Of a DNA stretch of 64,000 bases, positions 34,410 to 60,966 are shown piece after piece; position 1 is the first letter of the stretch, and the number at the start of each line of letters is the position of its first letter. The notes under the pieces were generated by a model that saw only the letters and a program-made list of their open reading frames with translations, was not told where the DNA came from and did not search any database. Source of the DNA: Candidatus Woesearchaeota archaeon (GTDB lineage Archaea > Nanobdellota > Nanobdellia > Woesearchaeales > JACPBO01); contig JAUSCS010000006.1 in NCBI GenBank assembly GCA_030651135.1, positions 68,851 through 132,850 of the forward strand, in the 5' to 3' direction. The translations under genes and the position numbers were made by a program.

Positions 34410-34561
34410 CGCCGAGGGGGAGATTTGAACTCCCGAGCCCTTGCGGGCACTGAATCTTTACGGTACTTGTGGCGATCATAAGCACTGTTGTACTTAGCAA
34501 TCTTCCGCCATGCTTCAGATTGAAGGCATGTCAGCGCAGTACCAGGTTGTGCCACCTCGGC
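34410..34561 (-). tRNA. tRNA-Ser(GCU) with two introns (30/31: 34502-34530; 37/38: 34456-34494)
   Basis: Acceptor GCCGAGG/CCTCGGC with G73, long variable arm GCCC-GCAA-GGGC, T-arm GGGAG-TTCAAAT-CTCCC. Removing 29 nt and 39 nt restores stem CTGAA/TTCAG with loop TT-GCT-AA. The 37/38 BHB helix is TTGC/GTAA. Confidence 0.85.
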
Positions 34562-34601
34562 ATAAGAGTCAGATATTCCCCATTGTTTATAAATATTTTT
34601 G

Positions 34602-35999
34602 TTATGTGTTGCGCTTGATTATTTTTACAACGCCTTTATAAGCATCAACTTCAATTTCATCGCCTGTCTTCAGGGCCAAGGTTATATGCTTAATTCCAAC
34701 AATGCAGGGTATTTTCATCTCTCTGCTGATTATTGCTGCATGGCTGGTTATGCCTCCTTTTTCTGTAATTACTGCTTTTGCTTTTTTTAGGAATGGAACA
34801 TAATCTGGCGTTGTATTTGATGTTACAAGTATTTCTTTATCTTTTAGTTTGTGTAGCTCTTTTACGCTCAAGATAACATTTACTGCGCCTCTTAGTTTAC
34901 CCCTATAAGCGGGCCTGCCAAAGAAAGTTGTTTGGCCAGATATGCTGAAAGGTGCAATTTCCTGTTCAAACTTACATCCATCATCTCCTGTGCGCATTTC
35001 GTAATTGCCATCGTGGTAATAGCATACAATTTTTTTCTTTCTTTTGATCAGCTCTTTCCCTGAGATTGTAATTGTATCTAACTGGATTAGCTCTTGGCCA
35101 GTCAACAGAGATATTTCTTCTTTACTCAGCCCCTTCTTCGCGCGCATCTCATCAAGAAGTTCATTTATGTAATAGCTGGCTTCTATAGCTGTTCTTTTCC
35201 TCGTATCCTGCACAAAGGTTATGAATTCTACCATGTTGGCCAGGGTTTTAAGCCGTTTATATTTACCGCCTTCTAATGAATTTAAAAATTTTTTCTTGTC
35301 ATTCATATTGTGCTCTTCAGTTAGTTTTAATGACTTGAGCTTGTCAAGGAAAAATCCCTCGCCCAAGTATTTTGTATCCACATAATTGTTGTTTAACCAA
35401 AAATAATTCTTTACATGCTCTTTGATAAGTTGCCTGAAATTTGGCTTTTTTGATATTGCTAGCAATTCTTTTTCTTCCCTCAGCAAAAAAGAGTCTCTGG
35501 GAATTGAAAGCAGGTCTATCACCTTGTTAGCTTCTTTCCCAAATAGACTTTTTACCTCTTCATCAAAATCTTTCTCAACAAATTCAATAGAAAGTTCGGG
35601 TATCATGACTATGGCGAAGTACCTGGCATATTTATCATAAATTTCTTTGAACAGCACACTCAATGATTTTATGCTTCTGTCCTTTATAGTTTCAACTTTT
35701 CTTGAAGAATTCAGCAATTGACTGCCTCGTTCTATCATGATCCTTTCAGTTTTCTTCAGAAATTCAGTATTTTTTATGCATTTAGCCAATAATTTCTGTG
35801 CGCCTTCTCTTAAATCAGGCTCTGAATAACAGGCCCTTGCAGAATACACATCAGTAATGCTGAACATCAGGTTTCTGATTTTTCTATTATAGTAGCTGTC
35901 ATGCTCTTTTAAGCAGGCGAGCAAAACGCTCACAATATACAAGGTAATTCTCTGATTTGGAACATCATGATACCAATTTTTATTTTGAAGTTTTGCCAT
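34602..35999 (-). CDS. Phospho-His swivel (PEP-utilizer mobile) domain protein with a large helical N-terminal domain
   Basis: C-terminal TTPDYVPFLKKAKAVITEKGGITSHAAIISREMKIPCIVG; no ATP-grasp or TIM-barrel domain. Confidence 0.88.
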   Translation of the reverse strand: MAKLQNKNWYHDVPNQRITLYIVSVLLACLKEHDSYYNRKIRNLMFSITDVYSARACYSEPDLREGAQKLLAKCIKNTEFLKKTERIMIERGSQLLNSSRKVETIKDRSIKSLSVLFKEIYDKYARYFAIVMIPELSIEFVEKDFDEEVKSLFGKEANKVIDLLSIPRDSFLLREEKELLAISKKPNFRQLIKEHVKNYFWLNNNYVDTKYLGEGFFLDKLKSLKLTEEHNMNDKKKFLNSLEGGKYKRLKTLANMVEFITFVQDTRKRTAIEASYYINELLDEMRAKKGLSKEEISLLTGQELIQLDTITISGKELIKRKKKIVCYYHDGNYEMRTGDDGCKFEQEIAPFSISGQTTFFGRPAYRGKLRGAVNVILSVKELHKLKDKEILVTSNTTPDYVPFLKKAKAVITEKGGITSHAAIISREMKIPCIVGIKHITLALKTGDEIEVDAYKGVVKIIKRNT

Positions 36000-36048
36000 A
36001 GTTATGATGCATTCCTCTTGATTATTTTTGCAATGCCCCTGTTTGCAT

Positions 36049-36987
36049 CTATCTTAATGCAGTCACAGGCCTTGCCTGCAATATGTAGATCTTCCCGCCT
36101 TCGATTGCCCATTCAATATCCATTGGAATGCTGTAATGCTTTTCGATCTCCTTTGTGAACTTTACCAGCCCCTTAGCTTCATTTTCATTCAGAACTTCGA
36201 TATGGCCGTGGCTTATATTCCTTTTCTCTGTTTTCCCGCTTTTGCTCCTGTAATATCCCCACTCCAGCTTCGATATGCTTTTGTTCTTAACTTTATGAGT
36301 TTTCTTGTCGATCACATAAGAGTGAGGAGTCAATGCTCCAAGCACAACAGCCTCTCCGAGGCCATAAGCTCCTTCAATGATTATCTCTTCCTTGTTCTGC
36401 GTTACAGGATTTATAGAAAATATAACCCCTGCCTTGTCTGCATTGACCATCTTCTGGACAACAACAGCTAAAAACACATTTTCGTGCGGAAAGTTATTTC
36501 TAACCCTGTAATAGATCGCCCTCGGCGTAAACAGCGAAGCAAAGCATTTCTGCACAGCTTCCAAAACCTCTTTTTCACCTTTAACATTCAAAAAAGTTTC
36601 CTGCTGGCCTGCAAAACTCGCATCAGGAAGATCCTCTGCTGTTGCCGAGCTTCTTACTGCAACAAAATCATTCATTCTTGAATATTCTTTCTTTATATCT
36701 TCGATAAGCGCCTTTGGCATGCGTGACTTCATAATAAGCCCTCTTACTTTTTCCGCTGTCTTATTCAGCTGACCTGTATTTTCAACATCAAGAGCTTTAA
36801 GCAGTTTATGGATCTTCTCATTAATTCCTGCTTCTGTTACAAACCTTTCATATGCCCTTGCCGTAATTACGAACCCGTCAGGAACAGGAAGCCCCATGCT
36901 TGCCAGCTCTCCTAAATTTGCAGCCTTGCCTCCAACAATAGGAATATCTTCTTTCCTTATATCCTTGAATAGTTTTATGTTCGGCAT
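36049..36987 (-). CDS. Stand-alone PEP synthase/PPDK N-terminal ATP-grasp domain
   Basis: VGGKAANLGEL, VAVRSSATAEDLPDASFAGQQETFLN, DIEWAI; ends at ILQARPVTALR, the domain boundary. Confidence 0.93.
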   Translation of the reverse strand: MPNIKLFKDIRKEDIPIVGGKAANLGELASMGLPVPDGFVITARAYERFVTEAGINEKIHKLLKALDVENTGQLNKTAEKVRGLIMKSRMPKALIEDIKKEYSRMNDFVAVRSSATAEDLPDASFAGQQETFLNVKGEKEVLEAVQKCFASLFTPRAIYYRVRNNFPHENVFLAVVVQKMVNADKAGVIFSINPVTQNKEEIIIEGAYGLGEAVVLGALTPHSYVIDKKTHKVKNKSISKLEWGYYRSKSGKTEKRNISHGHIEVLNENEAKGLVKFTKEIEKHYSIPMDIEWAIEGGKIYILQARPVTALR

Positions 36988-37023
36988 TAGATCCTCACTT
37001 TACTTTTTTGCCTATAAATCTTT

Positions 37024-38106
37024 CTATTTCTTTTTCAATATCCTTACAATGCCCTTATTGGCATCAATTTCAACAAGATCGCCATCTTTCAAGACCTTTG
37101 TAGCTATTTTAGTGCTCATAATGCTGGGGATTTTGAATTCTCGGGCAACAACTGCAATATGAGAAAGCGCACCTCCTTCATCTGTAATTATGGCTGCGAA
37201 TTTACTAAGCAGAGGTGCATCATCTGGTTTTGTTATGCTTGTCACTAACACATATCCGGGTTTAGCGATTTTTACTCCGTGGAACACCTTATAAACCTTC
37301 CCCACCACCTTTCCAGGATAAGCAGTTATTCCTTTTAAAACGCCCATATTGCGTTCAGCATCAATAAACTGTCTATAAACACTATTAACAATTTCCTTAT
37401 CAGCAGTAATATTGTCCTTATTTTTGTGAAAAAGATACAAATAACCTGCCTTTCTTTTCGATAATTCAGATAATTGGGTCTTAGAGATTTTTTTCTCTTT
37501 CAAAAATTTCTTAAACTCTTTCAATGTCAAATACCTTAATAAATCACCCTCAAAGATAGATTTCCCGATTTTTTCTGCGCAATTTTTAATTAACGGTTCT
37601 ATTTTAAGATATATCAAGTTGGCAACAGCATCTTTATCTTTAGCAATCAAATGGGTGAATTTTCCCAATTTTTTGGCCCTGTCTTTGTCATTTTTTACAT
37701 ATCTCATTATTGAATTATAGAACCCAATTTGGGCAAGAACCTCAGGATATATTTGGAATGTGACTTTTAAAACTTTGAAAACATCTCTTTCTTTTTTTAC
37801 TTGCTCAAAAAGATGATTGTCTTTATCGAAGAGGGCTTTTAATTTTTTATTTAAAGACCTCAACGCGCTCACTTTAATTTTTTTATTAAACAAGTTTCCT
37901 GCCTTTTCTTCATTAATTAAGAAATAAGCCATGTCACCTTTCCCTATGTTCCCCATAGTCCCATAAGAATATCCTATTTCTTTTTTAAGAATATTATTAT
38001 AGCCAAAAAATATACAGCTGGCAGTTATTAATGGAAGTTTTCTTGAGCTTGCATGGACCAACCCAGCATCTTTAATGATTTTTATATACTCCTCTGCCTT
38101 CTTCAT
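37024..38106 (-). CDS. Phospho-His swivel domain protein, paralogue 2
   Basis: C-terminal ITDEGGALSHIAVVAREFKIPSIMST...GDLVEIDANKGIV. Confidence 0.86.
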   Translation of the reverse strand: MKKAEEYIKIIKDAGLVHASSRKLPLITASCIFFGYNNILKKEIGYSYGTMGNIGKGDMAYFLINEEKAGNLFNKKIKVSALRSLNKKLKALFDKDNHLFEQVKKERDVFKVLKVTFQIYPEVLAQIGFYNSIMRYVKNDKDRAKKLGKFTHLIAKDKDAVANLIYLKIEPLIKNCAEKIGKSIFEGDLLRYLTLKEFKKFLKEKKISKTQLSELSKRKAGYLYLFHKNKDNITADKEIVNSVYRQFIDAERNMGVLKGITAYPGKVVGKVYKVFHGVKIAKPGYVLVTSITKPDDAPLLSKFAAIITDEGGALSHIAVVAREFKIPSIMSTKIATKVLKDGDLVEIDANKGIVRILKKK

Positions 38107-38219
38107 TTTTATCCTTTCCGTGATTGTTCCTCGTTCTTTATTAATTTTCTTATTTTTTCTTTAAAAATCCCATTCAAAAGAAAAACGCTTATAAATAAAA
38201 CACACATTCTCTTCTATAT

Positions 38220-38326
38220 AGCGGGGTAGGGCAGTCAGGAGACAGTAATGCCTCAATGCCCGTTGGGCTCATAACCCAGAGGTCGGAAGTTCAAAATCCG
38301 AAAGGATGAAATTCTTCCCCCCGCTA
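38220..38326 (+). tRNA. Initiator tRNA-Met(CAU) with two introns (D-loop about 21/22: 38242-38256; 59/60: 38296-38312)
   Basis: A1:U72 acceptor AGCGGGG/CCCCGCT, anticodon arm TTGGG-CTCATAA-CCCAG, perfect BHB TTCA/TGAA in the T-loop, relaxed BHB in the D-loop. Confidence 0.9.
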
Positions 38327-38824
38327 TTATTTTTTCAGTCTTTTCTGGATCTCTTCTGCAACACCCTCGATCTCGTAATCTTCATCAAGATCCAGAATTA
38401 CATCAGCATACTTTCTGTAAAGAGGCAGCCTTTCCTCAAAAAGCGATCTTAATCCTTTCCCCTTCAACCCGACTATTCCTCTTGTAAGGCGGTTCTTTAC
38501 TTTATCAACTATCTTGAAAGGGGCATTCAAAAATACAACAACGGATATCTTCTTCAGAAATTCCATAGCATTTGCAGAATAAGCCGCGCTGCCTCCTGGT
38601 GAAATAACGCAGTTATTCAGCTCACCCAAACCCAGAATTGTTTTTTCTTCTATTTTCATAAACTCTTCATCTCCAAATTCATCAATTATCTGCTGCAGCT
38701 TCAGTTTGGAATTTTTTTCAATTATTTCATCAACATCTATAAAATTGTAATTAAGCCTTTTTGCCAGCACTCTCCCCACTTTGCTCTTTCCGACTCCCGC
38801 CATTCCGATCAGTGTTATGTTCAT
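38327..38824 (-). CDS. aroK: Shikimate kinase, AroK (NMP-kinase) type
   Basis: LIGMAGVGKSKVG P-loop, FIDVD, VISPGGS, ERLPLYRKYAD. Confidence 0.85.
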   Translation of the reverse strand: MNITLIGMAGVGKSKVGRVLAKRLNYNFIDVDEIIEKNSKLKLQQIIDEFGDEEFMKIEEKTILGLGELNNCVISPGGSAAYSANAMEFLKKISVVVFLNAPFKIVDKVKNRLTRGIVGLKGKGLRSLFEERLPLYRKYADVILDLDEDYEIEGVAEEIQKRLKK

Positions 38825-38967
38825 TCCTAAGTTTTATTTTCAGGAATATTTAAATCTAATCATTATGTTATATGTTAAGTAAACTAAAATATGGCACATA
38901 GTTAGAAACTTTACTTAACACATTATGCAACAATAAACTATTTAAACACTTGCCCTTATCTTCACTT

Positions 38968-39627
38968 ATGATAATCTGCGGTGTTGAAGAGGCTGGGCGC
39001 GGCCCTGTTATAGGTCCCATGGTTATGTGCGGCTTGGCTATTGACGAAAACAAGATTCAGCAGTTAAAAGACATCGGCGTAAAGGACTCAAAGCTTCTTT
39101 CACCTCATGAAAGAAATCGCCTCTTTGATAAAATTCTAGAACTTGCAGACAAATGTGAAATCACAATAATCCCTCCTGAAGAAATAGACCGCGCAGTCGG
39201 AAGGGAAGAGGACATCAATTTAAACTGGCTTGAAGCAAGAAAAACAGCTGATATGATCAACAAGCTCCATCCCGACAAGGTTTATTTGGACTGCCCCTCT
39301 CCAAACTGCGAGAAATACGCGGAATATATCAAAAAACTTTTAAAAAATAAAAATCCCGAGATCATAGCAGAGCACAAGGCAGATGTCAACTATCCTATTG
39401 TAGGAGCAGCATCAATAATAGCGAAAGTCACAAGAGACAAGGAGATCGAAGCTTTAAAAAAGAGGTTCAAGGTTGACTTTGGCTCAGGCTACCCTGCTGA
39501 TCCTTTTACTGCTCAGTTTTTAAAGGAAAACTATGCAAAATACCCTTTTTTCAGGAAAAGCTGGTCAAACTATAAGGACGCGGCTGCGCAGAAGAACCAG
39601 AAAAAACTTTTTGAGTTCAGGAAATAA
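38968..39627 (+). CDS. rnhB: Ribonuclease HII
   Basis: EEAGRGPVIGP, KDSKLL, HKAD, AASIIAKVTRD, GSGYPADP; C-terminal PIP-like QKKLFEF. Confidence 0.93.
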   Translation: MIICGVEEAGRGPVIGPMVMCGLAIDENKIQQLKDIGVKDSKLLSPHERNRLFDKILELADKCEITIIPPEEIDRAVGREEDINLNWLEARKTADMINKLHPDKVYLDCPSPNCEKYAEYIKKLLKNKNPEIIAEHKADVNYPIVGAASIIAKVTRDKEIEALKKRFKVDFGSGYPADPFTAQFLKENYAKYPFFRKSWSNYKDAAAQKNQKKLFEFRK

Positions 39628-39668
39628 ACAATAATTTTAAATAGTGTATTTTAATCAAAATTAACAAA

Positions 39669-42600
39669 ATGACAAAAATAAACAAAATAGTAATGCACGG
39701 CTTTAAGTCATTCGCAAAGCACACAGAGCTTTTATTTGGAGATAAGTTTAACTGCCTCTTGGGGCCAAACGGAGCAGGCAAGTCAAACATTCTAGACGCG
39801 CTCTGCTTCGTGCTGGGCAAAAGCTCAAGCAAGTCATTAAGGGCTGAAAAATCTTCTGATTTCATCTACAACGGCTGGAAAACAAAAAAAGCATCGCCTT
39901 ATGCAGAAGTTTCAATCTATTTTGACAACAGCAAAAAGATATTCCCGTCCAATGAGAGAGAAGTAAAGATATCAAGGATCGTAAAGCAGAACGGCCAGAG
40001 CAAATATAAAATCAATGATAAGACAATGACAAGGCAGCAGGTCTTAGATCTCCTCAACATAGCAAGAATCGACCCGGATGGCTACAATATAGTTCTTCAG
40101 GGCGATATTGTCAGGTTTACAGAGATGCCGACTGAAGAAAGAAGAAAAGTCATAGAAGAAATTGCCGGAATCTCAGTTTACGAGGATAAAAAGCATAAGG
40201 CTGAGCTTGAGCTTCAAAAGGTAGATGAAAGGCTTAACGAGGCAAATGTTATTCTGAAGGAAAGGGAAACATATCTTAAAGAATTGAAGAAAGACAGGGA
40301 TCAGGCATTAAAGTATAAGGAATTAAACGATAAGATAAGACAAAACAAGGCAACCTACATTTATACGCAGATGGATAGGGAAAATAAAAAGAAAAAAGAG
40401 CTTGATGAAAAAATCCTTAAGCATAAGGAGCAAGTAGAAGCTCTGCAAAGGAATATTTCTAATTTAAAGAACGATATTCTTGACAAGCAAGGGGAGATAA
40501 AAAAAATAACTGAAGAAGTTGAAAAGCGCGGATACAAGGATTCTCTTGATTCAGAAATACAGCAGCTTAAAGTAGACACAGCGGCAAACAAGACAAAAAT
40601 GGAAAGCTTTGAAACTGAGATTTCAAGAATAATGCAGAGAAAAGAGGGGCTGCAGGGCAGTCTTTCGCAGACTGAAGAAAAAATTGAATCATTGAACAAA
40701 GAAAAGCTTGGCTTGGAAGAAGAAAAGTCAAGAAAGCTGAAAGAGATAAATGATCTGGTAAAAAAACTGGATGAATTCAAAAAGAGAAACAAGATTGGAA
40801 AGGATGTTGAGGATATTGAAAAAGAAGTTGAGGCAATTGACAAGTATCTTGAAGAAAATCAGAACAATATACAGCGGCTAAGAACAGAGCAGCAGGAGCT
40901 CTTGAGAAGAAAAGACTTGCTCGAGTTCAGCGTAAAATCGATAGATGAGTCAATCAAAAAAGTGGAGGAAATTGAAAAAGAGCACAAAAAAGACATTCAG
41001 GATTTAAAGAGAAAGAAAGAAGAGCTTAAGAAGGCATCGAATGAGCTGAGCCAGCTGCTGAATGAAGATTCTTCACTGGCATTGCAGCTATCAAACTCAA
41101 GGGAGAAATTAACAAGATTAGTTGAGGAGCTGTCCAAATTAGAAGCAAGAAGCGTTGGCAGCCAGGAGAGATTTTTTGGCAATATTGCTGTCAAGAAAGT
41201 GCTTGAAAACAAAAGCAGGCTCGGCGGGATATACGGCACTGTGGGCCAGCTTGGCAAAGTAAATTCAAAGTATGCCCTTGCCCTGGAAATTGCAGCAGGC
41301 CCGAAAATAGATGCTGTTGTTGTGGAAGATGACAAAACAGCTGCAAAATGCATAAAATATCTCAAGGAAAACAAGCTCGGCGTGGCAACATTCTTTCCTT
41401 TAAACAAAATAAAGCCAACTCCAATAAAGCCCGAAGTTGAGAAATTAAAGTCGAGCAGCGGCGTGCATGACCTTGCTGTTAACCTTGTTTCTTATGAATC
41501 AAGATTCAAGGATATTTTCTCGCATGTATTCGCCAACACGCTTGTTGTTGATAATATTGACGTTGCAAGAAGAATTGGCATCGGAACATCAAAGATGGTG
41601 ACAATTGACGGCGATTCTGCGGAATTAAGCGGAGCAATGCATGGCGGATTCAGGCACAGGACAAAAGGCATTGGCTTCGAGGAAGAGGACGTAGCCAAAA
41701 ACATTGAAGACAAAAATGAAGAGGCTGTTGAACTAAAAACTCTTGTTTCCTCTCTTGAAAAAAGAAGAAAAGAAGTTGATGATAAGGTAGTTTCTTTGAG
41801 GACATTCAAGGCAAACCTTGAAGGGGATGTAATAAAAATTGAGAAAGGGCTTCACCTTGAAGATTCTGATCTTGATGCCAGCAAGAGAAAGAAAGACTCG
41901 CTCGCCGCTGAAATCAAAGACGTTGATAAGAAGCGGGATAAGCTCGAAGACAGCATATCTGCCCTGAATAATGAGATGGCCCAGAACAAAACAAAAAAAC
42001 AGGAATTGAAAAACAAAATAAATGATTTGAGAAATCCGAAGATACTGGCTGAGTTAAATGCTTTTGAAGAAAAGAAAAAAGAGCTCGATGCTGATGTTAT
42101 AAACAGGGGCCTCAATATAAAGAATATTGATGACCAGGTACAATCAATACACATCAGGGATAAAGAGAACACAATAAAAATCCTGAAGCAGAATGACAAG
42201 GAAATTGAAGGCTTTAAAAAACAGATTGTTGATTTGAAAGACAGGATAAAAAACCAGTATTCTGCTCTAAAGGAAAAAGAGGACAAGCAAAATGAATTCT
42301 ATTCCAGATTTGAAGCTCTTTATAAAAAAAGAACCAAGCTGACTGACGAGATTTCAGAGTCGGATAAAAAAACAGAGTCTTTGGCAGCAAAGTTAAAAGA
42401 GGGCGGGGATGTAATAAATGGGCTTTCTATCGACGAAGCTGCAATAAAAGCAAGGCTTGCTGGATTAGATGAAGAGTTCCAGCAGTATGCCGGCGTTAAG
42501 CTCGCTTCACACAAGTCTGAAGAAGACCTAAAGAAAGAGATAAATGAATTTGAAAAGATGAGAGACAACATAGGAAGCGTCAATATGAGGGCATTGGATA

Positions 42601-43401: not shown

Positions 43402-43410
43402 GGTGAGAAA

Positions 43411-46912: not shown

Positions 46913-47019
46913 GGGGCGTTAGCTCAGCCTGGGTCTGCAATACGCAGGAAAGAGCACACGGCTGAAGACCGTGGTGTCAGGGATTCAAAAGAATTATGCT
47001 GAAAGTTCCCTACGCCCCA
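46913..47019 (+). tRNA. tRNA-Phe(GAA) with two introns (D-loop about 20/21: 46934-46950; 59/60: 46990-47005)
   Basis: Acceptor GGGGCGT/ACGCCCC, arm CACGG-CTGAAGA-CCGTG, BHB helices CCTG/CAGG and TTCA/TGAA with 3-nt bulges. Confidence 0.92.
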
Positions 47020-49187: not shown

Positions 49188-51449
49188 TTAGCTTTGCTTG
49201 ACGGCCCTCTTCAGCCATTCATTCCAGTCAAAAAATATTCTTTTCGAATCTAAAAATCCGACTTCTTCTTTTACAGCATCAGATATTTTGTGAAATTTGT
49301 CATTTGCCAGAACAACAAACTTTGCTTCGAGCAAATCAGGCGTTTTCGTCTTATCAGCTGCATCAACTATTGCTTCTTTTATTTTAGCCCTTAGCAGTAT
49401 ATTGTCCCATACTGCATCCCAGTTGCCAGCCCATTCCTTGACATTGCCTGCTATTGCTTTCAATATGTCAGAATCTCCATTTACCAGATCCTTGCTCGCT
49501 TCTAAGCTGTCTGTTTTTGAATTGTATTTCATTAAATCGACAAACCCGCCTTCAGTCAAAGGATCATCTTCCCAGAATTTCCTGACTTCAGTTATTTGCG
49601 TAACTCTTCTCCATCTGTGAAGGCCGTCTGCTGATCTTATAGGATTTGCAACAACTATGACATCAGTTGCCTTGAAGCTTGTTCTTGGCACTCCAAGATC
49701 ATTAACAACCCTGTCAAATACGCCATAAGGTGAATCGCCATGTATTGTTCCTGCAACAACATTTGCTAATGCGCCCACTCTCATTGCCTCATATAGTGCT
49801 TTTGCTTCTGTCGAACGAACTTCTCCTACAACCAGCGCAGAATCTCCTAATCTGAGCGTTGATCTTATTCCCTCATCCGCAGAAACTTCTGTTGTTCCTT
49901 TGGTTAAAGCGCTTGCCACTTTCATTGACTGTATGTTATAGCCCAGATTTCTAAGGGCAGAAACCGGGAGTTCTAAGGTGTCCTCAATAGTTATTATCCT
50001 GTATTTTCTCATGATATCAACCATAACAGCCCCCAGCAGTGATGTTTTTCCTGCAGATCTTGTTCCTGCAACAAGCATTGTCCTTGATCCATCTATTATG
50101 AAACTAAGAATTCCTCCTGCAAGCGGATTTATCATTCCATTCTTGATGAACAATGGCAAAGTCCAGGGCTTATCCCTGTGCCTCCTGAATGCATATGCCA
50201 GTCCAGTTGGGTTAAGAGGGGGAGAAATAACACCGACTCTTGCCCTTGCCCCGGGTATTGAAATTTCTGTATCGAGAATCGGATTTGCTTCATCCAATGG
50301 CCTTCCGGAAAGCATCCTTAATTTTGATGCCCATGATTCTGCTTCTGTGCTTGTCGGAATGATGTTTGTCATGCAGTCCCCAAAATCCTGGTGCACAATA
50401 AACATAGGAGTCCTACCCATTGGGCTGTTGATTGTAACATCCTGCACTTTCTCGTCTTTCAGCAAGACTTCAATAAGCCCGAATCCGATTGTATATCTGA
50501 CCAGAATGCTTGCCAATTCGCTGATCTCCCTCTCCCTCATCTTCATATTTTTGTAAGATGCAAGTTCCTCTATCAAATCCCTTCCGACATTGAAGAAAAC
50601 TTCCCTCATTCTTTCAGGGTCTGTGAACTCTGCTTTTGTCGGCTTATGCTCGGCCATTATCTTTCTTGCAGCATCCAGCACATCATACTTTTCCTCGCTT
50701 AGCTTAAATTCGGGCGGAGTCATATGATAAAGGTACTGTACGGTGTCAGGAAACCCGAATATCATGACTTCGGTGCCGTCAATATCGTAATTATCCAGCT
50801 CTTCGCCATTTTCAGGATAAGCTGCCATTAATTTTGTGAACATGAAATCCGGCTTTATTATCGGGTTGAATATCTTTCTGTAAACAGCCCTGTCCCCTCT
50901 TTTGTATCCTGCAAGATAAGGCTGCGCAAGAGCCATCATCTTTGTTTTGCTTAAAAGCCTCAGCACATAATTCAATATTGAGAGGTATTTTTTAGAGCAT
51001 GGAACATACCGCTCGTCAATGGTTTTTTCCAGTATTATTTTTTCATGCCTTATTAACCGCTTGATTTCAATATATGCGTCTATCGGGTCAGATTTAAGCA
51101 TCTTAAAAACAATATTCTGCGTATCAGCATACCATTTATCCGCGTAAGCCCTGCAGTAGGGATCTGATGCAAGATTTTCATAGCCAAAAACATCGCGCTG
51201 CTTTGTCAGATGCTTGTAAAGCCTCGCTATCTCTGCCAGCAGCCTGGTTTGCGCATAATCATACTCATAATCCCTTTTCTGCGAGAATACTATCTTCGTG
51301 ATATTGCCTATCTCAGTTAATACATCTACTGCGCGGGACATGCATGCTGATGAATCTTCCAGTGAAGGGGCAAAATCCCAGTTTTCGGCGTTGAACTTAA
51401 GCACAGTATCCTCGCCTTCCCTTATTACATCATAATCCTCGTCCGGCAT
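49188..51449 (-). CDS. Type II/IV secretion (VirB11/TadA/FlaI-like) ATPase
   Basis: Walker A GTRSAGKTS, TIEDTLEL, VGEVR, GTIHG. Confidence 0.92.
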   Translation of the reverse strand: MPDEDYDVIREGEDTVLKFNAENWDFAPSLEDSSACMSRAVDVLTEIGNITKIVFSQKRDYEYDYAQTRLLAEIARLYKHLTKQRDVFGYENLASDPYCRAYADKWYADTQNIVFKMLKSDPIDAYIEIKRLIRHEKIILEKTIDERYVPCSKKYLSILNYVLRLLSKTKMMALAQPYLAGYKRGDRAVYRKIFNPIIKPDFMFTKLMAAYPENGEELDNYDIDGTEVMIFGFPDTVQYLYHMTPPEFKLSEEKYDVLDAARKIMAEHKPTKAEFTDPERMREVFFNVGRDLIEELASYKNMKMREREISELASILVRYTIGFGLIEVLLKDEKVQDVTINSPMGRTPMFIVHQDFGDCMTNIIPTSTEAESWASKLRMLSGRPLDEANPILDTEISIPGARARVGVISPPLNPTGLAYAFRRHRDKPWTLPLFIKNGMINPLAGGILSFIIDGSRTMLVAGTRSAGKTSLLGAVMVDIMRKYRIITIEDTLELPVSALRNLGYNIQSMKVASALTKGTTEVSADEGIRSTLRLGDSALVVGEVRSTEAKALYEAMRVGALANVVAGTIHGDSPYGVFDRVVNDLGVPRTSFKATDVIVVANPIRSADGLHRWRRVTQITEVRKFWEDDPLTEGGFVDLMKYNSKTDSLEASKDLVNGDSDILKAIAGNVKEWAGNWDAVWDNILLRAKIKEAIVDAADKTKTPDLLEAKFVVLANDKFHKISDAVKEEVGFLDSKRIFFDWNEWLKRAVKQS

Positions 51450-51600: not shown

Positions 51601-51750
51601 TGCATTTTCAGATCATCATCTTGCAAGGCATTCATATTGTTTATATTATAAAATATATTTTATAGTATTTTATTTATTTTATAATATACTTGAAAGAAGA
51701 AGTATTTAAGGATTGCGGTTTTTTGAAATTTGGCTAAGAAAAGGGTTAAA

Positions 51751-51841
51751 TGCACCGGCCGGGATTTGAACCCGAATAAATGGCTCGCTTCTAAGCATTG
51801 GCTAGTGGAAGGCCATTGTCATGCCATTAGACCACCGGTGC
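51751..51841 (-). tRNA. tRNA-Gly(UCC) with a canonical 37/38 intron (51786-51805)
   Basis: GCACCGG/CCGGTGC acceptor, ATGGC-CTTCCA|A-GCCAT arm, perfect BHB CTTC/GAAG. Confidence 0.93.
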
Positions 51842-51934
51842 ACAGCTTGTGAAAAACCACTTTATTTTATAAAACTTTTCATATTCGCGCTAAAAAACAA
51901 AATCTTTTTATACTTCCTTATCAAAAACGCCCTT

Positions 51935-53133: not shown

Positions 53134-53230
53134 AGCATTATGAAATAGAGTGTTTATTTAAATATTTACCTTAGTTGCATTGGACATCTCTGCTGCTTAA
53201 CTTTATAAACCCCAAAAGCATTCCCTCTTT

Positions 53231-54484: not shown

Positions 54485-54506
54485 AAACACCGTAATTATT
54501 CTCCTT

Positions 54507-55709
54507 ATGGCAACTTTAGCGTTTGAAAATCTTGAATTTCTGGAAAAAGAAAATGAAGTAGTTGTTAATTTCATGAAATACTTCTATTTTAAAATCGAAA
54601 AAGAAGATCTTGAAAAAATAGCTGATTTTAAAATAAATAAGAACAGCATAGATTTCGAGAAAATTTCTGAAAGCTCTGCATCAAATAAGTTCAATATTCT
54701 GCTTTCAAAAAAAATAACAGGATTGAAAAGCAAGATATCTGGCAATAAGACAATCTACATCCACAAAAACTCAGGCATTCCATTGATTGGCTCGAACAGC
54801 TTCGGCCTGGTTGACCGGGGAACATCATTAATAGAAATTAAGCCAATTACTGGCTGCAATCTTGGCTGCATATTCTGCAGCGTAAATGAAGGCATTGGCA
54901 CAAACAAGGCTGTTGATTTTGTCGTCGAAAAAGATTACATTGTTGAGGAATTTAAGAAATTAGTTGCCTTTAAGGGCATCAAAGATATTGAAGCGCATAT
55001 AAATGCGCAGGGCGAGCCGCTGCTTTACTCCAACCTTATAGATCTGATTAAAGATTTGAGAAAAATAAAAGAAGTTGATGTTATTTCAATGGACACAAAC
55101 GGCGTTTTATTAAATAAAAAGCTTGTTGATGAATTAGTGGATGCAGGATTAACCAGATTTAATCTTTCTCTCGTGGCATTAGACAAGGAACTGGCAAAAA
55201 AGCTTGCAGGAACAATCTATGATGTTGAAAAAATAAAAGAAATTGCTCGCTACATAGCCAAAAAATCAGAATTATTGGTTGCTCCTGTTTTGGTGCCGGG
55301 CATGAATGACAGCGAAATACCAAAACTAATAGAATTCTGCAAGGAAATAAATGCAAAAATAGGCCTGCAGAACTTCCTTAATTACAAATATGGAAGAAAC
55401 CCTGTAAAGGCAATTCCGATGGAGCTTTTCAGAAAAAAACTTGGAGAATTGGAATCAGAATATAACATAAAGCTTCTTTTGGCCAAAGATGATTTTAACA
55501 TAAGGGAAACTAAAAAGCTTCCAAAGCCGTTTAAAAAAGGCCAGATAATAAAAGCAAAAATAATGTGCGAAAGCAGATTAAGGCAGGAAAAGATCGCTGT
55601 TGCTGACGAAAGATGCATTACAGCGCCAAACTGCAGCCAGGAGAGCGGCATTGTAAAGCTGAAAATAACAAGGGATAAGGACAATATTTTCTATGGCGGA
55701 CAAGTTTAA
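54507..55709 (+). CDS. Radical SAM protein with C-terminal TRAM-like domain
   Basis: CNLGCIFC (CxxxCxxC), AHINAQGEPLLY, SMDTNG. Confidence 0.9.
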   Translation: MATLAFENLEFLEKENEVVVNFMKYFYFKIEKEDLEKIADFKINKNSIDFEKISESSASNKFNILLSKKITGLKSKISGNKTIYIHKNSGIPLIGSNSFGLVDRGTSLIEIKPITGCNLGCIFCSVNEGIGTNKAVDFVVEKDYIVEEFKKLVAFKGIKDIEAHINAQGEPLLYSNLIDLIKDLRKIKEVDVISMDTNGVLLNKKLVDELVDAGLTRFNLSLVALDKELAKKLAGTIYDVEKIKEIARYIAKKSELLVAPVLVPGMNDSEIPKLIEFCKEINAKIGLQNFLNYKYGRNPVKAIPMELFRKKLGELESEYNIKLLLAKDDFNIRETKKLPKPFKKGQIIKAKIMCESRLRQEKIAVADERCITAPNCSQESGIVKLKITRDKDNIFYGGQV

Positions 55710-55809
55710 CACAACATAGTAGTGAAAACCGAAAGGTTTTTAAATAAAGCCATAAATCTGCTTCTATTGGGATTTTTTCTATTTGGAAAGATTCTAAGGT
55801 TTTTGAAAA

Positions 55810-56637
55810 ATGAAAGAAATAAATGAGAGATGGCTGGCTAATGGATCGATCAATATAGGTGATATTACATCAAAATCCGCTTTGCTGGGCAAAGCCATAG
55901 ATGACATTCTTAAAGAAGATGGCATTGAAAAGCCAACAACACACAGGATTCATAGGGAGATGGCGCGCATTTATAGAGGAAAACTTAATGATGCCATTAA
56001 AGATGATAGCTTCGTCAGAGCAGAAATCATAACGCAGACCATGATCAACTCTTACAATCCTGCAGAAATCATGTTTTGGTATGACAACCCCGATTTCAAA
56101 GATGAAGAAGACGGCGATTATCACCATAACAGTGCTGGGAAAGACAAAATAAAAAAGATAAGAAGCTGCGCTGAAGACCTGCAGGCAAGCTTAGGATCAT
56201 TCGAAGATAAACTCTATGCAAAGCGCCCTTGGGAAACCGAAGGTATATTTAAGAAGATTATGGGGCATATATGCAAAACCGATGTAGAAACGCATGCTAA
56301 GGCTGTAAAAGATGATATTGTCGGAAGCGAGTATAAAGCATTTATTTCATCTATAGAAGACATCACATATGACGTAAGGCGAGCCATAGTAAGGAAAGAG
56401 GGCGGAACTTCAGATTTGAAAACAGCGCTAAATAAAATAGATGATTTACACAAGAAATATAATGAGAGATTTTTAGGGGAGAAATATCACGATGTCTGTA
56501 AAAGAACGAGGGTGGCGGCTGAGAAATTTCTAATAGATGTGGCGCTTTTGAGGACTGTGATCATGAGGTATTTGAATTATAAAGATGGTCAGAACTCTCT
56601 ATACGAGGCGCGAATTAATAAGATGTATATTATGTGA
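55810..56637 (+). CDS. Hypothetical protein
   Basis: 275-aa ORF with an upstream TATA-like TTTAAATA; no family recognised. Confidence 0.62.
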   Translation: MKEINERWLANGSINIGDITSKSALLGKAIDDILKEDGIEKPTTHRIHREMARIYRGKLNDAIKDDSFVRAEIITQTMINSYNPAEIMFWYDNPDFKDEEDGDYHHNSAGKDKIKKIRSCAEDLQASLGSFEDKLYAKRPWETEGIFKKIMGHICKTDVETHAKAVKDDIVGSEYKAFISSIEDITYDVRRAIVRKEGGTSDLKTALNKIDDLHKKYNERFLGEKYHDVCKRTRVAAEKFLIDVALLRTVIMRYLNYKDGQNSLYEARINKMYIM

Positions 56638-56672
56638 TGTAAACGAAATCATAGAACTCTGTATTATTTAAT

Positions 56673-56805
56673 TTAACTAACCTTTAGACCTCTCTCAAGT
56701 TCTCATTAAAAATTAAAAGAAAAAAAGTTATCAAACCTTATTGCGCAGCTGCTACAGTTATGTCTGTCAAGCTTGTGCCGGTTACAGTTACTTCTGCTCC
56801 CTTCA
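56673..56805. repeat. Second copy of the S-layer gene 3' end plus downstream region (partner 57983-58125)
   Basis: 56738-56805 matches 58058-58125 at 67 of 68 nt. TCTCTCAAGTTCTCATTAAAAA is identical in both, and weaker homology extends out to TTAACT. Confidence 0.92.
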
Positions 56806-56851
56806 CTATGCGGTAAGAGCCCCATAATCTCTGAAATAGGCGAAAGGTTTA

Positions 56852-56886
56852 TATGTATGTACACATTTATTATGCGTATATACATA
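56852..56886. promoter_or_regulatory. Candidate autoregulatory operator of the RHH antitoxin-like gene
   Basis: IR TATGTATGTAC...GTATATACATA (10 of 11 match) just downstream of a TATA-like TTTATAT. Confidence 0.5.
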
Positions 56887-56899
56887 TGGAGGAATAAAA

Positions 56900-57133
56900 A
56901 TGGTAACCATGACTTTAGCAGTCCCGGATGAATTAAGGCATAAAATGGAAACGTTTCCAGAAATTAATTGGTCCGAAGTAGCTAGGCAAGCATTTAATCT
57001 GAAAATCAGTGATTTGGAGTTTTTAAGAAAATTTAAATCCGAAAGCAAGTTTACGGAAGAAGGTGCTCTAAAGCTAGGTGCAGAAGTGAGTAGAAACCTC
57101 GCTAAGAGATTCGCCCAAAAAAGAGGCAATTAA
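56900..57133 (+). CDS. RHH/VapB-like antitoxin (orphan)
   Basis: MTLAVPDELRHKMETFPEINWSEVARQAF; GGAGG RBS. Confidence 0.75.
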   Translation: MVTMTLAVPDELRHKMETFPEINWSEVARQAFNLKISDLEFLRKFKSESKFTEEGALKLGAEVSRNLAKRFAQKRGN

Positions 57134-57213
57134 ATGGTTACTAATAAAGGCAGGTATAAATTATATCGTTTGACAGAATAGGATGAAAGGATAGTGAATA
57201 TTATTGCTAAGCC

Positions 57214-57468
57214 CTAATCAATTAACTCTTCAATCTCCCTTATTTTCTTAGGATTCAGGCTGACTTCCAACCCATAATGAGTGGGTTTGGATAAAAGTAT
57301 CTGCTCACTAAGAAGCTCTTCTATTGCCTTTTTAACCTCTCTGGAAACCCTTAATTCATTAGATAACCCTTTTGGAAGGTTATTGATGTTTGTATGCTTA
57401 TGAAGCCACATTCTTTTTCTGTATAATTTCCTAACAATGAACTTTTTTATAACCTGCCTTTCATCCAT
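57214..57468 (-). CDS. Small basic hypothetical protein, paralogue of 2569..2823
   Basis: 84 aa, full-length similarity to the 2.6-kb ORF. Confidence 0.72.
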   Translation of the reverse strand: MDERQVIKKFIVRKLYRKRMWLHKHTNINNLPKGLSNELRVSREVKKAIEELLSEQILLSKPTHYGLEVSLNPKKIREIEELID

Positions 57469-57603
57469 GCAAATCTATGAAAAGGAGCACTCATATTTAT
57501 AGTTTTCGTTTTGTAAACCATGGTTATTAAAATAGAAACATTTATATACTTTTCTCATTTACTTCGCGTTAAGGTGTTCAACTTGAACGAAAAACAAACA
57601 GAA

Positions 57604-57927
57604 ATGGTGGAAGAGAAAAGCGTATTTGTAGAATACTTTGGAGATTACCCTTTGATTAGGGTGTTGGATTTCTTAATTTTAGGCAGGGACATGGATTACA
57701 GTATGACGGATATATGCGACAATTCATGTGTCGGTTGGACAGCCTTTTCCGATATATGGCCGCGTTTGGTTGAAAAAGAGATAGTAATCTTCACGAGAAA
57801 AATAGGAAATGCAAAATTGTTCAGATTGAATGTAAAAAATCCCTGGGTAAAAGAACTTATAAGGATGGACCACGTTATTACAAAATTGGAAACGGAAAAA
57901 TTTATTTCTACAGAAGTTACAGTTTAG
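57604..57927 (+). CDS. Winged-helix protein, paralogue of 2929..3243
   Basis: IRVLDFLILGRDMDYSMTDI...IGNAKLFRLN; ATG at 57604. Confidence 0.8.
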   Translation: MVEEKSVFVEYFGDYPLIRVLDFLILGRDMDYSMTDICDNSCVGWTAFSDIWPRLVEKEIVIFTRKIGNAKLFRLNVKNPWVKELIRMDHVITKLETEKFISTEVTV

Positions 57928-58057
57928 CCATATAACAAATTTTGTTTAATAATCGCAGTGCGCACCACCAAAAGCATTTCAGTTAACTGATCTTTAGTCT
58001 TCTCTCAAGTTCTCATTAAAAATAAAAGAAAAAAAAGAAAAAAAGGTAAAAACCTTT

Positions 58058-60463
58058 TTATTGCGCAGCTGCTACAGTTATGTCTGTCAAGCTCGTGCCG
58101 GTTACAGTTACTTCTGCTCCCTTCATGCTTGAAGCATACTTGCTCCACTGCGAAGCTACTCTGCTGGCTCTTCTTGTGTCTTCAGCATTGTATCCAGCAA
58201 CTAGCATTGCAACTTTGCCTGCATTTTCATACAGCTTTACCATTGCTTTGCCTTCTGTGAAATCTTTGCCGCATGGGCTTGGACTTCCCATTATTGCTGC
58301 TGCTGCTGTGTTAGCACATGGTCCGCCTATAATGATGGCGTTCTGAGCTTTTATGTCAGCAACTTCGCTGTCTAGCTTGGCAGTTCCAACATTCCAAACA
58401 TTGACTGTTTGTGTTGTAGTTCCGCCGCTTGTGGTTGTTGTTGCTGCAGTTGGTGCAACGAATACAGTATATGCTGTTGCTGCGGAAGGATATAACAACT
58501 CCAAAATATCAGTGTCTGTGTTGTACTTCACATATGTACCATATTGGGACATACCCCTCTGGTCATATGTGCTTCCAATTGTGCCCATCGCTAAACCATC
58601 TCCAGTAGGCGTAGCAACCTGCATATCATACTTGCTGTCTGCAATTTGGTTCAACGTAATGTTGATGTCGTTACCAGCATCACCTAATTTCTGGTTAGAA
58701 GTGCCAGCTGCAGTCAAGTTGTAGTAGTCTCCATCATTGTACTGTGTCTCTTGCGTAATGGTAATGTTGCAACTAACAACACCACTTACCCCTGTCAAGT
58801 TAGCTGGGAACGCTATCTTTTCCCCGCCTTTAGCATAAACGTAGTTCTGCAAAGCTTTTCCACCAGAAGATGTTGTGACGTTTATACCACTATTTGTGGC
58901 ATTTACCATAACATTGTAGGTATACCCATCTAAGCTGAATGTTGACGAGTTTGTCGAATCCAAGCTTAATGTCAGGGTGTCACTGCCAGATGCTATGTCT
59001 TTTATCTTCACTTCAGGCGAACTTGAACCTGCATTTATCCTTTTTACTTGCATAATGTGCGAATAACCGCCTTGGTCGATTATGAAGTAATCGTTTTCTA
59101 CCATTGCAATTTGTCCACTAGCAAAAGATAAATTTGTCCACAATTTATAGCTGTCTACTCCAAGATCACAGTTCGCAGTTCCACTGGTTGCTGTTCCTTT
59201 TAAGAACTTAGTGGAGTATTTTTGGCCTGCTTTGTTTGTGAACTCTATCGCTGCAGTATCTTCGCCAGTTGGATAGATCTTTATCACATCTCTGCTTGCG
59301 TCATCAAGTGCGGGTGTTGTCCCAGTAAAAGACCACTTGAATGTGCCGAATACAGGGTCTGTAAACGATTCACCGCTTTTCAGATATCTGAATTCTGGGT
59401 CCATATTGTATGGCTCTACTGCTATTGCAAGCTTCGTTATCGTAGAACCACTAACGCTTGCCACCACCGTTGTTCCATCTATGTCTGAAGATGCCATTCT
59501 TGCAGCTTCTCCATTTCTCAGTATTAACTTGTCTGAGCCGATGAACAATCTTACAGCGCCGCTTGTTACTGGTGTTGTATAAGCAAATATGTCTCTTACA
59601 TACACTCTTATTCCGCCTAATACAACTACTTCGCCAGCTGTTACTGAAGCAGATTCTCCATTAACTTTGATTGTTGCAGTTGAAGTTGTTGTTCCTGTGT
59701 TTACACCTGTTACTTCAACCGAAACATCTGTTCCTGCAACTGTTACAGTTATAGCTTCTCCTGCAGAGAATGTTTGGTCTGTTCCGCCGCCGAATAATAC
59801 AAGCCCAGTTGTGCTGTTTACAACTAATTCAGCATCAGTTCCTGCAAATGTATATTCTTTGCCGAATAATGTTATCAGCTTGTTGTTTAGCTTTGTTGTT
59901 GTAACTGCTGAAGGAAACTCTATTTGCGCGACATACTTTGCCCCGCTTGGCAAATTAAGATACACTTGAGGATCGTTTGATAATCCTGTTGGTGTTCCAA
60001 ATGTAATTTTCGCTGTCGAGTTAAGTATGTTTATCTTTTGGTTATAGTCCCAAGCTGTGCCATCTTCATCTGTAATAGATCCGCTAGCCAATACCTTTGT
60101 CAAATCAGATGATGTCAGTGCTGTTTTAACAACACTTAATGTCTGGCCCAGATATAGCTTCTGTCCTGCTGTCTCGACTTTTACACCGCCTTCCAAAACT
60201 GTTGTTGTTGCTCCTGATGTTGTTGTTGTAATAGATGCTGCTTGCAATGCTGTTGCAACGTCAATAGCACCTATTATGTCTTCTGAAGACGCAGCTTTGC
60301 CAACTACAAGTAAGGCATTAAACTTTCCATCAGTCCCAATAAATAATGGGCTCGGGTACTGACTCAAGTCAGCTGCTGCTACTGCACCTAGGATTGTAGC
60401 GCCTAACATTGCTGCGCCGGTTCCTATTGCAGCGATCCTCTTTATTGCTTTTTTTACGTTCAT
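58058..60463 (-). CDS. S-layer protein (Methanococcus-type N/C domains)
   Basis: Signal KKAIKRIAAIGTGAAMLGAT, VVGKAASSEDIIGAIDVA, IIIGGPCANTAA, MLVAGYNAEDTRRA; Thr/Ser/Gly-rich; GGAGGTG RBS. Confidence 0.9.
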   Translation of the reverse strand: MNVKKAIKRIAAIGTGAAMLGATILGAVAAADLSQYPSPLFIGTDGKFNALLVVGKAASSEDIIGAIDVATALQAASITTTTSGATTTVLEGGVKVETAGQKLYLGQTLSVVKTALTSSDLTKVLASGSITDEDGTAWDYNQKINILNSTAKITFGTPTGLSNDPQVYLNLPSGAKYVAQIEFPSAVTTTKLNNKLITLFGKEYTFAGTDAELVVNSTTGLVLFGGGTDQTFSAGEAITVTVAGTDVSVEVTGVNTGTTTSTATIKVNGESASVTAGEVVVLGGIRVYVRDIFAYTTPVTSGAVRLFIGSDKLILRNGEAARMASSDIDGTTVVASVSGSTITKLAIAVEPYNMDPEFRYLKSGESFTDPVFGTFKWSFTGTTPALDDASRDVIKIYPTGEDTAAIEFTNKAGQKYSTKFLKGTATSGTANCDLGVDSYKLWTNLSFASGQIAMVENDYFIIDQGGYSHIMQVKRINAGSSSPEVKIKDIASGSDTLTLSLDSTNSSTFSLDGYTYNVMVNATNSGINVTTSSGGKALQNYVYAKGGEKIAFPANLTGVSGVVSCNITITQETQYNDGDYYNLTAAGTSNQKLGDAGNDINITLNQIADSKYDMQVATPTGDGLAMGTIGSTYDQRGMSQYGTYVKYNTDTDILELLYPSAATAYTVFVAPTAATTTTSGGTTTQTVNVWNVGTAKLDSEVADIKAQNAIIIGGPCANTAAAAIMGSPSPCGKDFTEGKAMVKLYENAGKVAMLVAGYNAEDTRRASRVASQWSKYASSMKGAEVTVTGTSLTDITVAAAQ

Positions 60464-60610
60464 GCTTAAACACCTCCGTGTTTTACTTAGCATTATTCCA
60501 AAAAGGGAACATCGTTCTCTTTTTTCACAAACTTAGATGGCTGTAGGAAGCTTGCTCTTCTGCAAACTATTCCTATTTCTAAGTTCTTATCATCTACAGT
60601 AAGGAACTAG

Positions 60611-60626
60611 TTTATAAACCTTTCGT
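60611..60626 (-). promoter_or_regulatory. Candidate BRE/TATA of the S-layer gene
   Basis: Minus-strand CGAAAGGTTTATAAA about 150 nt upstream of the ATG. Confidence 0.55.
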
Positions 60627-60808
60627 AAGCAAAGGCACACTATAATCGTTAAACTTAGCGATAAAGCGTATCTCGTTAAAATTTTTAGTTTCTGGATAGT
60701 TGTTACCTACAAATAGAGAATCAAGAAAACATCCAAAAAACAGCATTTTCAAGCCCATTTTAAGCCACATAGCGCACCAATATTTTGTATATCAGTATAC
60801 AAAAAATA

Positions 60809-60966
60809 TGCGGAGTGCAGGACTTTCAGTTGCTCTGCAACATTCGAACCTGCGTAGGGACTGACCCAATAGGTGTCTTAATATCATTGGAAGCTGCTTC
60901 CTCAACACACCTAAGCTTGGATGATCTTTCGATCTCTATCCCGTTTGGCCACTCCGGCAACTCCGC
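60809..60966 (-). tRNA. tRNA-Leu(UAG) with three introns (30/31: 60917-60935; 37/38: 60875-60909; 59/60: 60823-60842)
   Basis: GCGGAGT/ACTCCGC-A73 and variable arm GGG/CCC. BHB helices GGAT/ATCC, CTTA/TAAG and TTCG/TGAA each have 3-nt bulges. The spliced 84-nt product has arm ATAGG-CTTAGGA-CCTAT. Confidence 0.93.

Follow-up and report, generated by a model that had tools for sequence, protein, structure and literature searches.

Ten short introns, most of them at non-canonical sites, in five tRNA genes of a Woesearchaeota-type DPANN archaeon

The stretch of DNA analysed here (64,000 nucleotides, nt, of contig JAUSCS010000006.1; hereafter, the window) contains five tRNA genes within its 64 kb: Ser-GCU, initiator Met, Phe-GAA, Gly-UCC and Leu-UAG. 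Together, the five genes carry ten introns of 15–39 nt, which occupy only four sites (20/21, 30/31, 37/38 and 59/60); seven of the ten sit at non-canonical positions. We consider it very probable that all five genes are functional in their host, a Woesearchaeota-type DPANN archaeon, with bulge-helix-bulge (BHB) introns that are predicted to be spliced. A preliminary description, made from the letters of the window alone, had proposed that every tRNA gene in the window is intron-bearing, with ten introns of 15–39 nt in five tRNAs, seven of them non-canonical. This picture stands: our scans find only these five genes, the spliced form of each is called as a tRNA, and the intron lengths and the count of non-canonical sites agree. 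The genes and their parts are as follows.

34410–34561, minus strand: tRNA-Ser(GCU); 152 nt, G73 counted; class II (long variable arm); mature length 84 nt
34502–34530, minus strand: Ser intron 1; 29 nt at 30/31; helix CGCU/GGCG, inner hairpin AUGC/GCAU
34495–34501, minus strand: Ser micro-exon between the two introns; 7 nt, AUUGCUA, containing the anticodon GCU
34456–34494, minus strand: Ser intron 2; 39 nt at canonical 37/38; helix UUGC/GUAA, 4/4 pairs
38220–38326, plus strand: initiator tRNA-Met; 107 nt; mature length 75 nt
38242–38256, plus strand: initiator Met intron 1; 15 nt (ACAGUAAUGCCUCAA) in the D-loop, equivalent to 20/21
38296–38312, plus strand: initiator Met intron 2; 17 nt at 59/60; strict BHB with helix UUCA/UGAA; outer helix is the 5-bp T-stem, inner helix 3 bp
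46913–47019, plus strand: tRNA-Phe(GAA); 107 nt; mature length 74 nt
46934–46950, plus strand: Phe intron 1; 17 nt at 20/21 in the D-loop; helix CCUG/CAGG
46990–47005, plus strand: Phe intron 2; 16 nt at 59/60 in the T-loop; helix UUCA/UGAA
51751–51841, minus strand: tRNA-Gly(UCC); 91 nt; mature length 71 nt
51786–51805, minus strand: Gly intron; 20 nt at canonical 37/38; strict BHB with helix CUUC/GAAG
60809–60966, minus strand: tRNA-Leu(UAG); 158 nt; class II; mature length 84 nt
60917–60935, minus strand: Leu intron 1; 19 nt at 30/31; strict BHB with helix GGAU/AUCC
60875–60909, minus strand: Leu intron 2; 35 nt at 37/38; strict BHB with helix CUUA/UAAG
60823–60842, minus strand: Leu intron 3; 20 nt at 59/60; strict BHB with helix UUCG/UGAA; outer helix 5 bp, inner helix 5 bp

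The preliminary description had also warned that default annotation would miss these genes, and two common tools do indeed detect only one of the five. On the unspliced window, ARAGORN reports a single tRNA, at 51750–51842 on the minus strand, and names it Trp-CCA; its intron mode makes no change. This is tRNA-Gly(UCC), misnamed because the intron is placed one register off. The Rfam tRNA model has the same gene as its sole match (54.4 bits, gathering score), and a search of the window at E ≤ 10 returned nothing else tRNA-like. The Rfam alignment reads the anticodon as UCC and places a 20-nt insert after position 37, and thus the gene is a tRNA-Gly with an insert at that point.

The full set of genes emerges from a custom scan of both strands for a GC-rich, 7-bp acceptor stem with an adjacent 5-bp T-stem and a TTCRA T-loop, in which loops of more than 7 nt were allowed. 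With looser criteria, hits were about as numerous in the window as in shuffled sequence; the tightened scan yields exactly five convincing, GC-rich loci, namely the five genes listed above. About 89% of the window is coding (greedy cover by open reading frames, ORFs), and scans of the intergenic gaps, including the GC-rich stretches of the window, revealed no further tRNA-like locus. Once the introns are removed, ARAGORN calls Ser-GCT, Met-CAT, Phe-GAA, Gly-TCC and Leu-TAG. None of the five genes has a split or permuted layout; their exons are colinear and contiguous within 91–158 nt. The initiator tRNA-Met displays its identity features, with an A1:U72 pair and an anticodon stem whose base is made of three G-C pairs. 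The Ser (TTTATAAA, −32), initiator Met (CTTATAAA, −32), Gly and Leu (ATTATATA, −34) genes are each preceded, at −32 to −34, by a TATA-like box, and a box read by eye, ATATAAAT, lies at about −33 before the Phe gene. T-rich sequence is found 3' of the tRNA genes.

The introns share a common build: a central 4-bp helix with a 3-nt bulge on either side, the remainder of the intron forming a small hairpin. Taking the canonical Gly intron as a ruler, exon positions −5 to −2 relative to the 5' cut pair with intron positions −5 to −2 relative to the 3' cut, and each 3-nt bulge is cut behind its second nucleotide; a script was used to list every place in the genes that fits this ruler. Since the splice points are set by the cloverleaf, pairing in the helix constitutes an independent test of them. 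In the exact BHB register, the helix is fully paired (4/4) at eight of the ten sites, against one of 120 registers slid by 1–6 nt, the lone exception being Ser 30/31 at −2. With each site given a 0.02 probability of full pairing by chance, the binomial tail for eight of ten is approximately 1e-12. Strict or near-strict motifs are formed by all three Leu introns, the Ser (near-strict) and Gly introns at 37/38, and the initiator Met and Phe introns at 59/60. In all, the script recovered strict BHB motifs at seven sites, with the near-strict Ser 37/38 motif as an eighth. The TTCR/TGAA helix that had been proposed for all 59/60 introns was recovered as UUCA/UGAA in initiator Met and Phe, and as UUCG/UGAA in Leu; in all three, the T-stem serves as the outer helix.

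These motifs also bear on whether the inserts might simply stay in the mature tRNAs as enlarged loops, a reading to which we give next to no credence. Retention would produce T-loops of 23–27 nt and D-loops of 25–26 nt, which would destroy the D/T elbow, and a 29-nt insert in the anticodon stem, which would destroy decoding. In addition to the presence of BHB motifs, relatives differ freely in the sequence and length of the inserts, but not in the exons.

Further support for the intron boundaries comes from other metagenomes. A 36.7-kb contig from groundwater sequencing run X1 is identical to the window, and X1 is its likely source. Relatives of the window are found in runs from at least four other studies, and these contain the same introns; the introns are therefore not an assembly artefact. 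For tRNA-Leu, a contig from run X2 lacks exactly positions 60917–60935 (the 19 nt of intron 1) and retains the rest of the gene, with 19 positions differing over the 359 bases compared. The Leu 30/31 intron is thus a presence/absence polymorphism. Relatives in runs X6 and X8 keep all three Leu introns, and among the matches listed, all of their differences within the gene lie in introns 1 and 2. Leu exon matches from other organisms stop at 60843.

For tRNA-Ser, relatives in six runs (X3, X4, X6, X8, X10 and X12) differ from the window at ten variable sites and by two indels, every one of which falls within an intron. The Ser introns account for 68 of the 152 nt of the gene, and the chance of all differences falling there is 3e-4. 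One of the changes, A to G at 34459, converts a U-A pair of the 37/38 helix to U.G, such that pairing is kept. In the initiator Met gene, relatives carry 13 extra nt inside the D-loop insert. Intron-less initiator Met genes of other organisms read ...AGCCAGGAG and then join the window at 38257, implying a mature D-loop of AGUCAGGAGU; at the other end of the gene, the match to other organisms runs through 38295 and is followed by TCC...CCCCGCTA, free of any insert. Similarly, tRNA-Phe genes of other organisms read ...CTGGG and then join exactly at 46951, and match through 46989 before continuing as TCCC...CCCA. Gly exon matches from other organisms stop exactly at 51785 and 51806. Past the boundaries of the initiator Met, Phe and Gly introns, the contigs of other organisms contain either intron-less sequence or a different intron at the same site. 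What is found, then, is the combination by which BHB introns are recognised: conserved exons, drifting introns, and presence or absence at exact boundaries.

The same comparisons speak to the proposal that the five loci are decaying pseudogenes with insertions, the work being done by intron-less copies elsewhere. Intron-less Phe, initiator Met and Leu homologues do occur in the same groundwater samples, which speaks for it. However, those copies have different acceptor stems, which assigns them to other organisms. In the source sample, X1, no joined form was reported for Ser or Phe (the two genes compared there), and the only other Phe copies carry different acceptor stems. The Ser exons are invariant among relatives of ~90–95% identity, with each listed change being intronic, as are the listed changes within the Leu gene. 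Moreover, every insert lies in a BHB register, a promoter box is present at each gene, and all five genes—the initiator included—would have to be dead at once. We regard the pseudogene proposal as highly improbable, and favour functional genes with introns.

Three of the ten motifs are relaxed: (i) the initiator Met D-loop (three of four pairs), (ii) the Phe D-loop (a 1-bp inner helix), and (iii) Ser 30/31 (a 5-nt 3' bulge). In the initiator Met D-loop, the helix consists of three pairs and a C.C mismatch, with an inner 2-bp stem and a GUAA loop. Excision of 15 nt is the sole choice with a BHB register, and the mature D-loop that results, AGUCAGGAGU, equals in length the AGCCAGGAGU of intron-less homologues. 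Four other boundaries considered for this intron were rejected; with these, either G18G19 is lost or no BHB register exists, and the D-loop of the homologues fits 15 nt. In the Phe D-loop, the CCUG/CAGG helix is fully paired (4/4) and is also part of the minimum-energy fold. With an inner helix of just one pair, the 5' site comes to lie almost within a loop, and the motif is nearly a bulge-helix-loop. Removal of the 17 nt leaves a D-loop, AGCCUGGGA, identical to that of nine intron-less orthologues.

At Ser 30/31, the 3' cut falls 4 nt (GAAG) past the helix rather than 2. The GAAG preceding the cut is invariant in all relatives seen, including the X4 relative, in which 8 nt of the hairpin tip of intron 1 are gone and the helix, GAAG and GGCGGAAG are retained. 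A normal stem and loop, together with a call by ARAGORN, are obtained with the 29-nt excision alone. A strict-BHB intron of 27 nt was rejected: its removal leaves an anticodon loop of 9 nt, in a product that ARAGORN fails to call. Also discarded was an alternative fold of the 3' site (UCUG/CGGA with CAA/UUG), which is altered in relatives (A41>C, U45>A) and deleted in that from X4. Both in Ser and in Leu, a single nucleotide separates the 30/31 3' cut from the 37/38 intron's central helix downstream. The Ser cut would therefore be rightly placed relative to the downstream helix, with a bulge of 5 nt instead of 3.

Several points weigh against functional, spliced genes. Firstly, for the whole Ser, initiator Met and Leu precursors, the minimum-energy folds prefer pairings other than the BHB helices, which are present in those of Phe and Gly only. 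Secondly, the initiator Met D-loop helix is mismatched, and a rival GAG/CUC register appears in the minimum-energy fold. Thirdly, the strict ruler puts the Ser 30/31 3' cut 2 nt upstream of where a 7-nt anticodon loop requires it. Fourthly, the order of splicing set out below, 30/31 before 37/38, is one that we infer from structure. Finally, a search with the Leu gene found no RNA runs containing these genes.

The events that we envisage are as follows. Each gene would be transcribed from its own TATA-box promoter, yielding a precursor with one to three BHB introns; EndA, the tRNA-splicing endonuclease of archaea, would then cut in both bulges of each motif and RtcB would join the exons. In Ser and Leu, the introns at 30/31 and 37/38 would form tandem BHB motifs around a 7-nt anticodon micro-exon. 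The 30/31 intron is probably excised first, because its outer helix is the helix of the 37/38 intron; its removal would restore the anticodon stem that the 37/38 intron needs. Given the three relaxed motifs, the enzyme must presumably have broad specificity.

One possible refinement, which we put forward tentatively and think unlikely to hold, is that the Woesearchaeales endonuclease sets the 3' cut from the downstream helix rather than by measuring across the central 4-bp helix. The basis for this suggestion lies in the tandem BHB motifs, the borrowed outer helix, and the conserved 5-nt bulge of Ser (GAAG|A). If true, such measuring would impose the order 30/31 before 37/38, would be a new substrate rule for alpha4-type enzymes, and would explain how a simple EndA copes with a Thermoproteales-like intron load.

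We turn to the placement of the introns. The preliminary description noted that positions are reused across the genes, with 30/31 used twice and 59/60 three times, and this holds. The two D-loop introns also correspond in position, both ending one nucleotide ahead of the D-stem's 3' strand, so that the ten introns reduce to four sites. At each of the four, the 3' cut lies one nucleotide ahead of a helix. At 20/21 this is the D-stem, through its 3' strand; at 37/38 it is the anticodon stem and at 59/60 the T-stem; at 30/31 it is supplied by the adjacent 37/38 intron, in the form of its central helix. The 37/38 and 59/60 sites moreover coincide, in that each falls between the sixth and seventh nucleotides of its 7-nt loop. 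With the 3' cut always one nucleotide before a helix, BHB geometry would explain site reuse, and no transposition is needed.

The alternative is that site reuse reflects recent transposition of introns between tRNA genes rather than structural constraint and vertical descent. Consistent with this, the three 59/60 introns share the end UGAAAG/U, two introns occupy each of 30/31 and 20/21, and intron transposition is documented for the Thermoproteales (Fujishima 2010, as cited in PMC4090602). The shared 59/60 ends, however, are exactly what pairing with the T-loop's conserved UUCR dictates. Apart from these bases, the ten introns resemble one another no more than shuffled sequences do: in a comparison between the five genes, the best local score was 7, equal to the 95th percentile of the shuffles. 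Among these ten introns we found no similarity across tRNA species of the type seen in the Thermoproteales, in line with the earlier statement that the intron sequences are unrelated. A few cross-site pairs in the set of tRNA-Phe genes described below do score at the edge of the shuffle range, yet clear similarity there is restricted to introns at the same site of orthologous genes. The suggestion in the preliminary description that introns spread by translocation consequently finds no support, and we judge transposition to be quite improbable; BHB geometry would be the simpler account of site reuse.

A further idea, compatible with spliced BHB introns, is that the introns are kept as protection, in that they break up tRNA sequences recognised by integrases or homing endonucleases. 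This idea has been published (Randau and Soll 2008, as cited in PMC4090602), and the introns are located in the most conserved loops (D, anticodon and T). On the other hand, no integrase, homing-endonuclease or other mobile-element gene adjoins the five genes, nine related species retain an intron-less tRNA-Phe at the same locus, and BHB geometry alone is sufficient to account for the choice of site. A protective role thus strikes us as doubtful.

For a lineage-wide view, the FlaI-like ATPase gene that lies between the Phe and Gly genes was used as a query, returning 80 loci from species-representative genomes. All 80 are from Woesearchaeota/Nanoarchaeia bins, some of them mislabelled, with identities of at most 72%. 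On this evidence, the host of the window is a Woesearchaeota-type DPANN archaeon. Many bins of the clade are titled 'uncultured Methanosarcinales archaeon', and one (L024) 'Armatimonadota bacterium'; these look mislabelled or misbinned. ARAGORN, including its intron mode, finds only 35 tRNAs in the 1.16 Mb of these loci. A syntenic tRNA-Phe was found in 34 species, comprising the window and 33 related species. It contains no insert in nine of the 34, and one to five inserts in the other 25. According to our own alignment of the 34 species, the inserts are distributed over the following sites.

Site 18/19: four species
Site 20/21: seven species including the window; in the six others, the insert ends in CAGGAA or CAGGAT
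Site 27/28: about six species
Site 37/38: many species
Site 46/47: about eight species
Site 59/60: about ten species; nine besides the window have an insert at or beside the site

The intron ends were read at 20/21, 27/28, 46/47 and 59/60, and as read they follow the BHB rule, with CAGGAA at 20/21, GCUU-type ends at 27/28, CCUA-type ends at 46/47 and mostly UGAAAG-type ends at 59/60. That clear similarity is confined to same-site introns of orthologous genes suggests vertical descent, rapid divergence, and frequent gain and loss; this comparison indicates that the introns are inherited vertically, diverge fast, and are often gained and lost across the Woesearchaeales. Given that the tRNA-Phe of 25 of the 34 species contains inserts, the expansion is lineage-wide, as the preliminary description had surmised for a DPANN genome. 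Outside the tRNA-Phe set, positions 8393–9636 of a related genome (L061) hold four clustered candidate tRNA genes with T-loop inserts of 27–39 nt, all of which end in TGAAAGT or TGAGAGT.

All four sites, and the disruption of tRNA genes in DPANN archaea, have been published before (PMC4090602, PMC5829648): 20/21, 30/31 and 59/60 are listed as known non-canonical sites in PMC4090602. A close match in architecture is provided by the multi-intron tRNA genes of the Thermoproteales, namely Pyrobaculum, Thermofilum and Caldivirga (Sugahara 2008, Fujishima 2010, as cited in PMC4090602). As in that order, the genes of the window contain up to three BHB introns each, use the same non-canonical sites, are missed by simple finders, and have relaxed motifs requiring a broad-specificity EndA. 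Unlike the Thermoproteales, the host is a groundwater DPANN archaeon with a genome of 38% G+C rather than a hyperthermophilic crenarchaeon, sequence-similar transposed introns are not seen among the ten introns or in the Phe set, and the expected enzyme is not an (alpha-beta)2 one with the crenarchaeal loop.

Within the DPANN superphylum itself, lineages with an alpha4-type EndA and L3 loop have increased tRNA gene disruption (Kaneta et al. 2018, PMC5829648). That study predicted tRNAs for Woesearchaeota and Pacearchaeota bins and pointed out that incomplete tRNA sets indicate undetected disrupted genes, which is the situation in the window. It reports genome-level tRNAscan-SE counts, whereas the present analysis gives the base-level anatomy of five genes with population-level support for the boundaries and, beyond that, a 34-species view of one orthologous gene. 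A second DPANN parallel is ARMAN-2 (Candidatus Micrarchaeum), an ultrasmall archaeon that likewise has non-canonical introns, some with relaxed motifs (PMC3239211, PMC3488258), and a broad-specificity EndA of the epsilon2 type (Fujishima et al. 2011, PMC3239211; Hirata et al. 2012, PMC3488258). ARMAN-2 belongs to a different phylum, and the enzyme architecture of the window's host is probably another one, epsilon2 EndA being known only from relatives of Micrarchaeum (PMC5829648). Short BHB introns in the D-, anticodon and T-arms, at most three per gene, are also found in Cyanidioschyzon merolae and in nucleomorphs (PMC3728597; PMC4090602); those, in contrast, are eukaryotic nuclear or nucleomorph genes, processed by a eukaryotic endonuclease in an unrelated lineage.

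Some other features of the window were recorded alongside the tRNA genes. Two ORFs (34602–35999 and 37024–38106) lie on either side of a PPDK_N gene, and each combines an N-terminal part of unknown nature with a PEP-utilizers mobile domain. Both ORFs are missing from a relative in run X3, with clean joints 34565>36056 and 37024>38151, and the X6 and X8 relatives have 749 and 1348 extra letters at 37002–37089. Within the FlaI-like ATPase gene (49188–51449), the X6 and X8 relatives carry 1544 additional letters at 49981–49990, an intein-sized insert that is absent from the window. On the minus strand, 61275–61440 holds a short zinc-ribbon ORF (CRRCGKRTFHMSKHKCSSCGY), probably ribosomal protein eL37, which shares the strand of tRNA-Leu and lies ~300 nt upstream of that gene's 5' end. 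Three further stretches may be of structural interest: positions 1–106, which are 63% G+C (window, 38%), look like structured RNA (GGTGCC...GGCACC), are truncated by the window start and have no Rfam match; a long, imperfect hairpin with inner stems at 12640–12700 (AAAAACCACC ... GGTGGTTTTT), in a 169-nt intergenic gap, which may be a small RNA; and a GC-rich hairpin at 18640–18675 (CCCCGAGCG...CGCAGGGG), in a 244-nt intergenic gap.

These genes leave the accepted view of archaeal tRNA splicing as it is; rather, the window provides a clean, base-level example of the published disruption of DPANN tRNA genes. The 34-species view of tRNA-Phe shows the speed at which introns are gained and lost, and the Ser 30/31 site offers a concrete substrate for asking how a DPANN EndA picks its cut. 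In practical terms, ARAGORN and the Rfam tRNA model miss four of the five genes and, between them, leave the fifth misnamed. Because such tools miss genes of this kind in this lineage, the tRNA counts of Woesearchaeota bins, the completeness estimates, and the missing-tRNA inferences drawn from them are unreliable.

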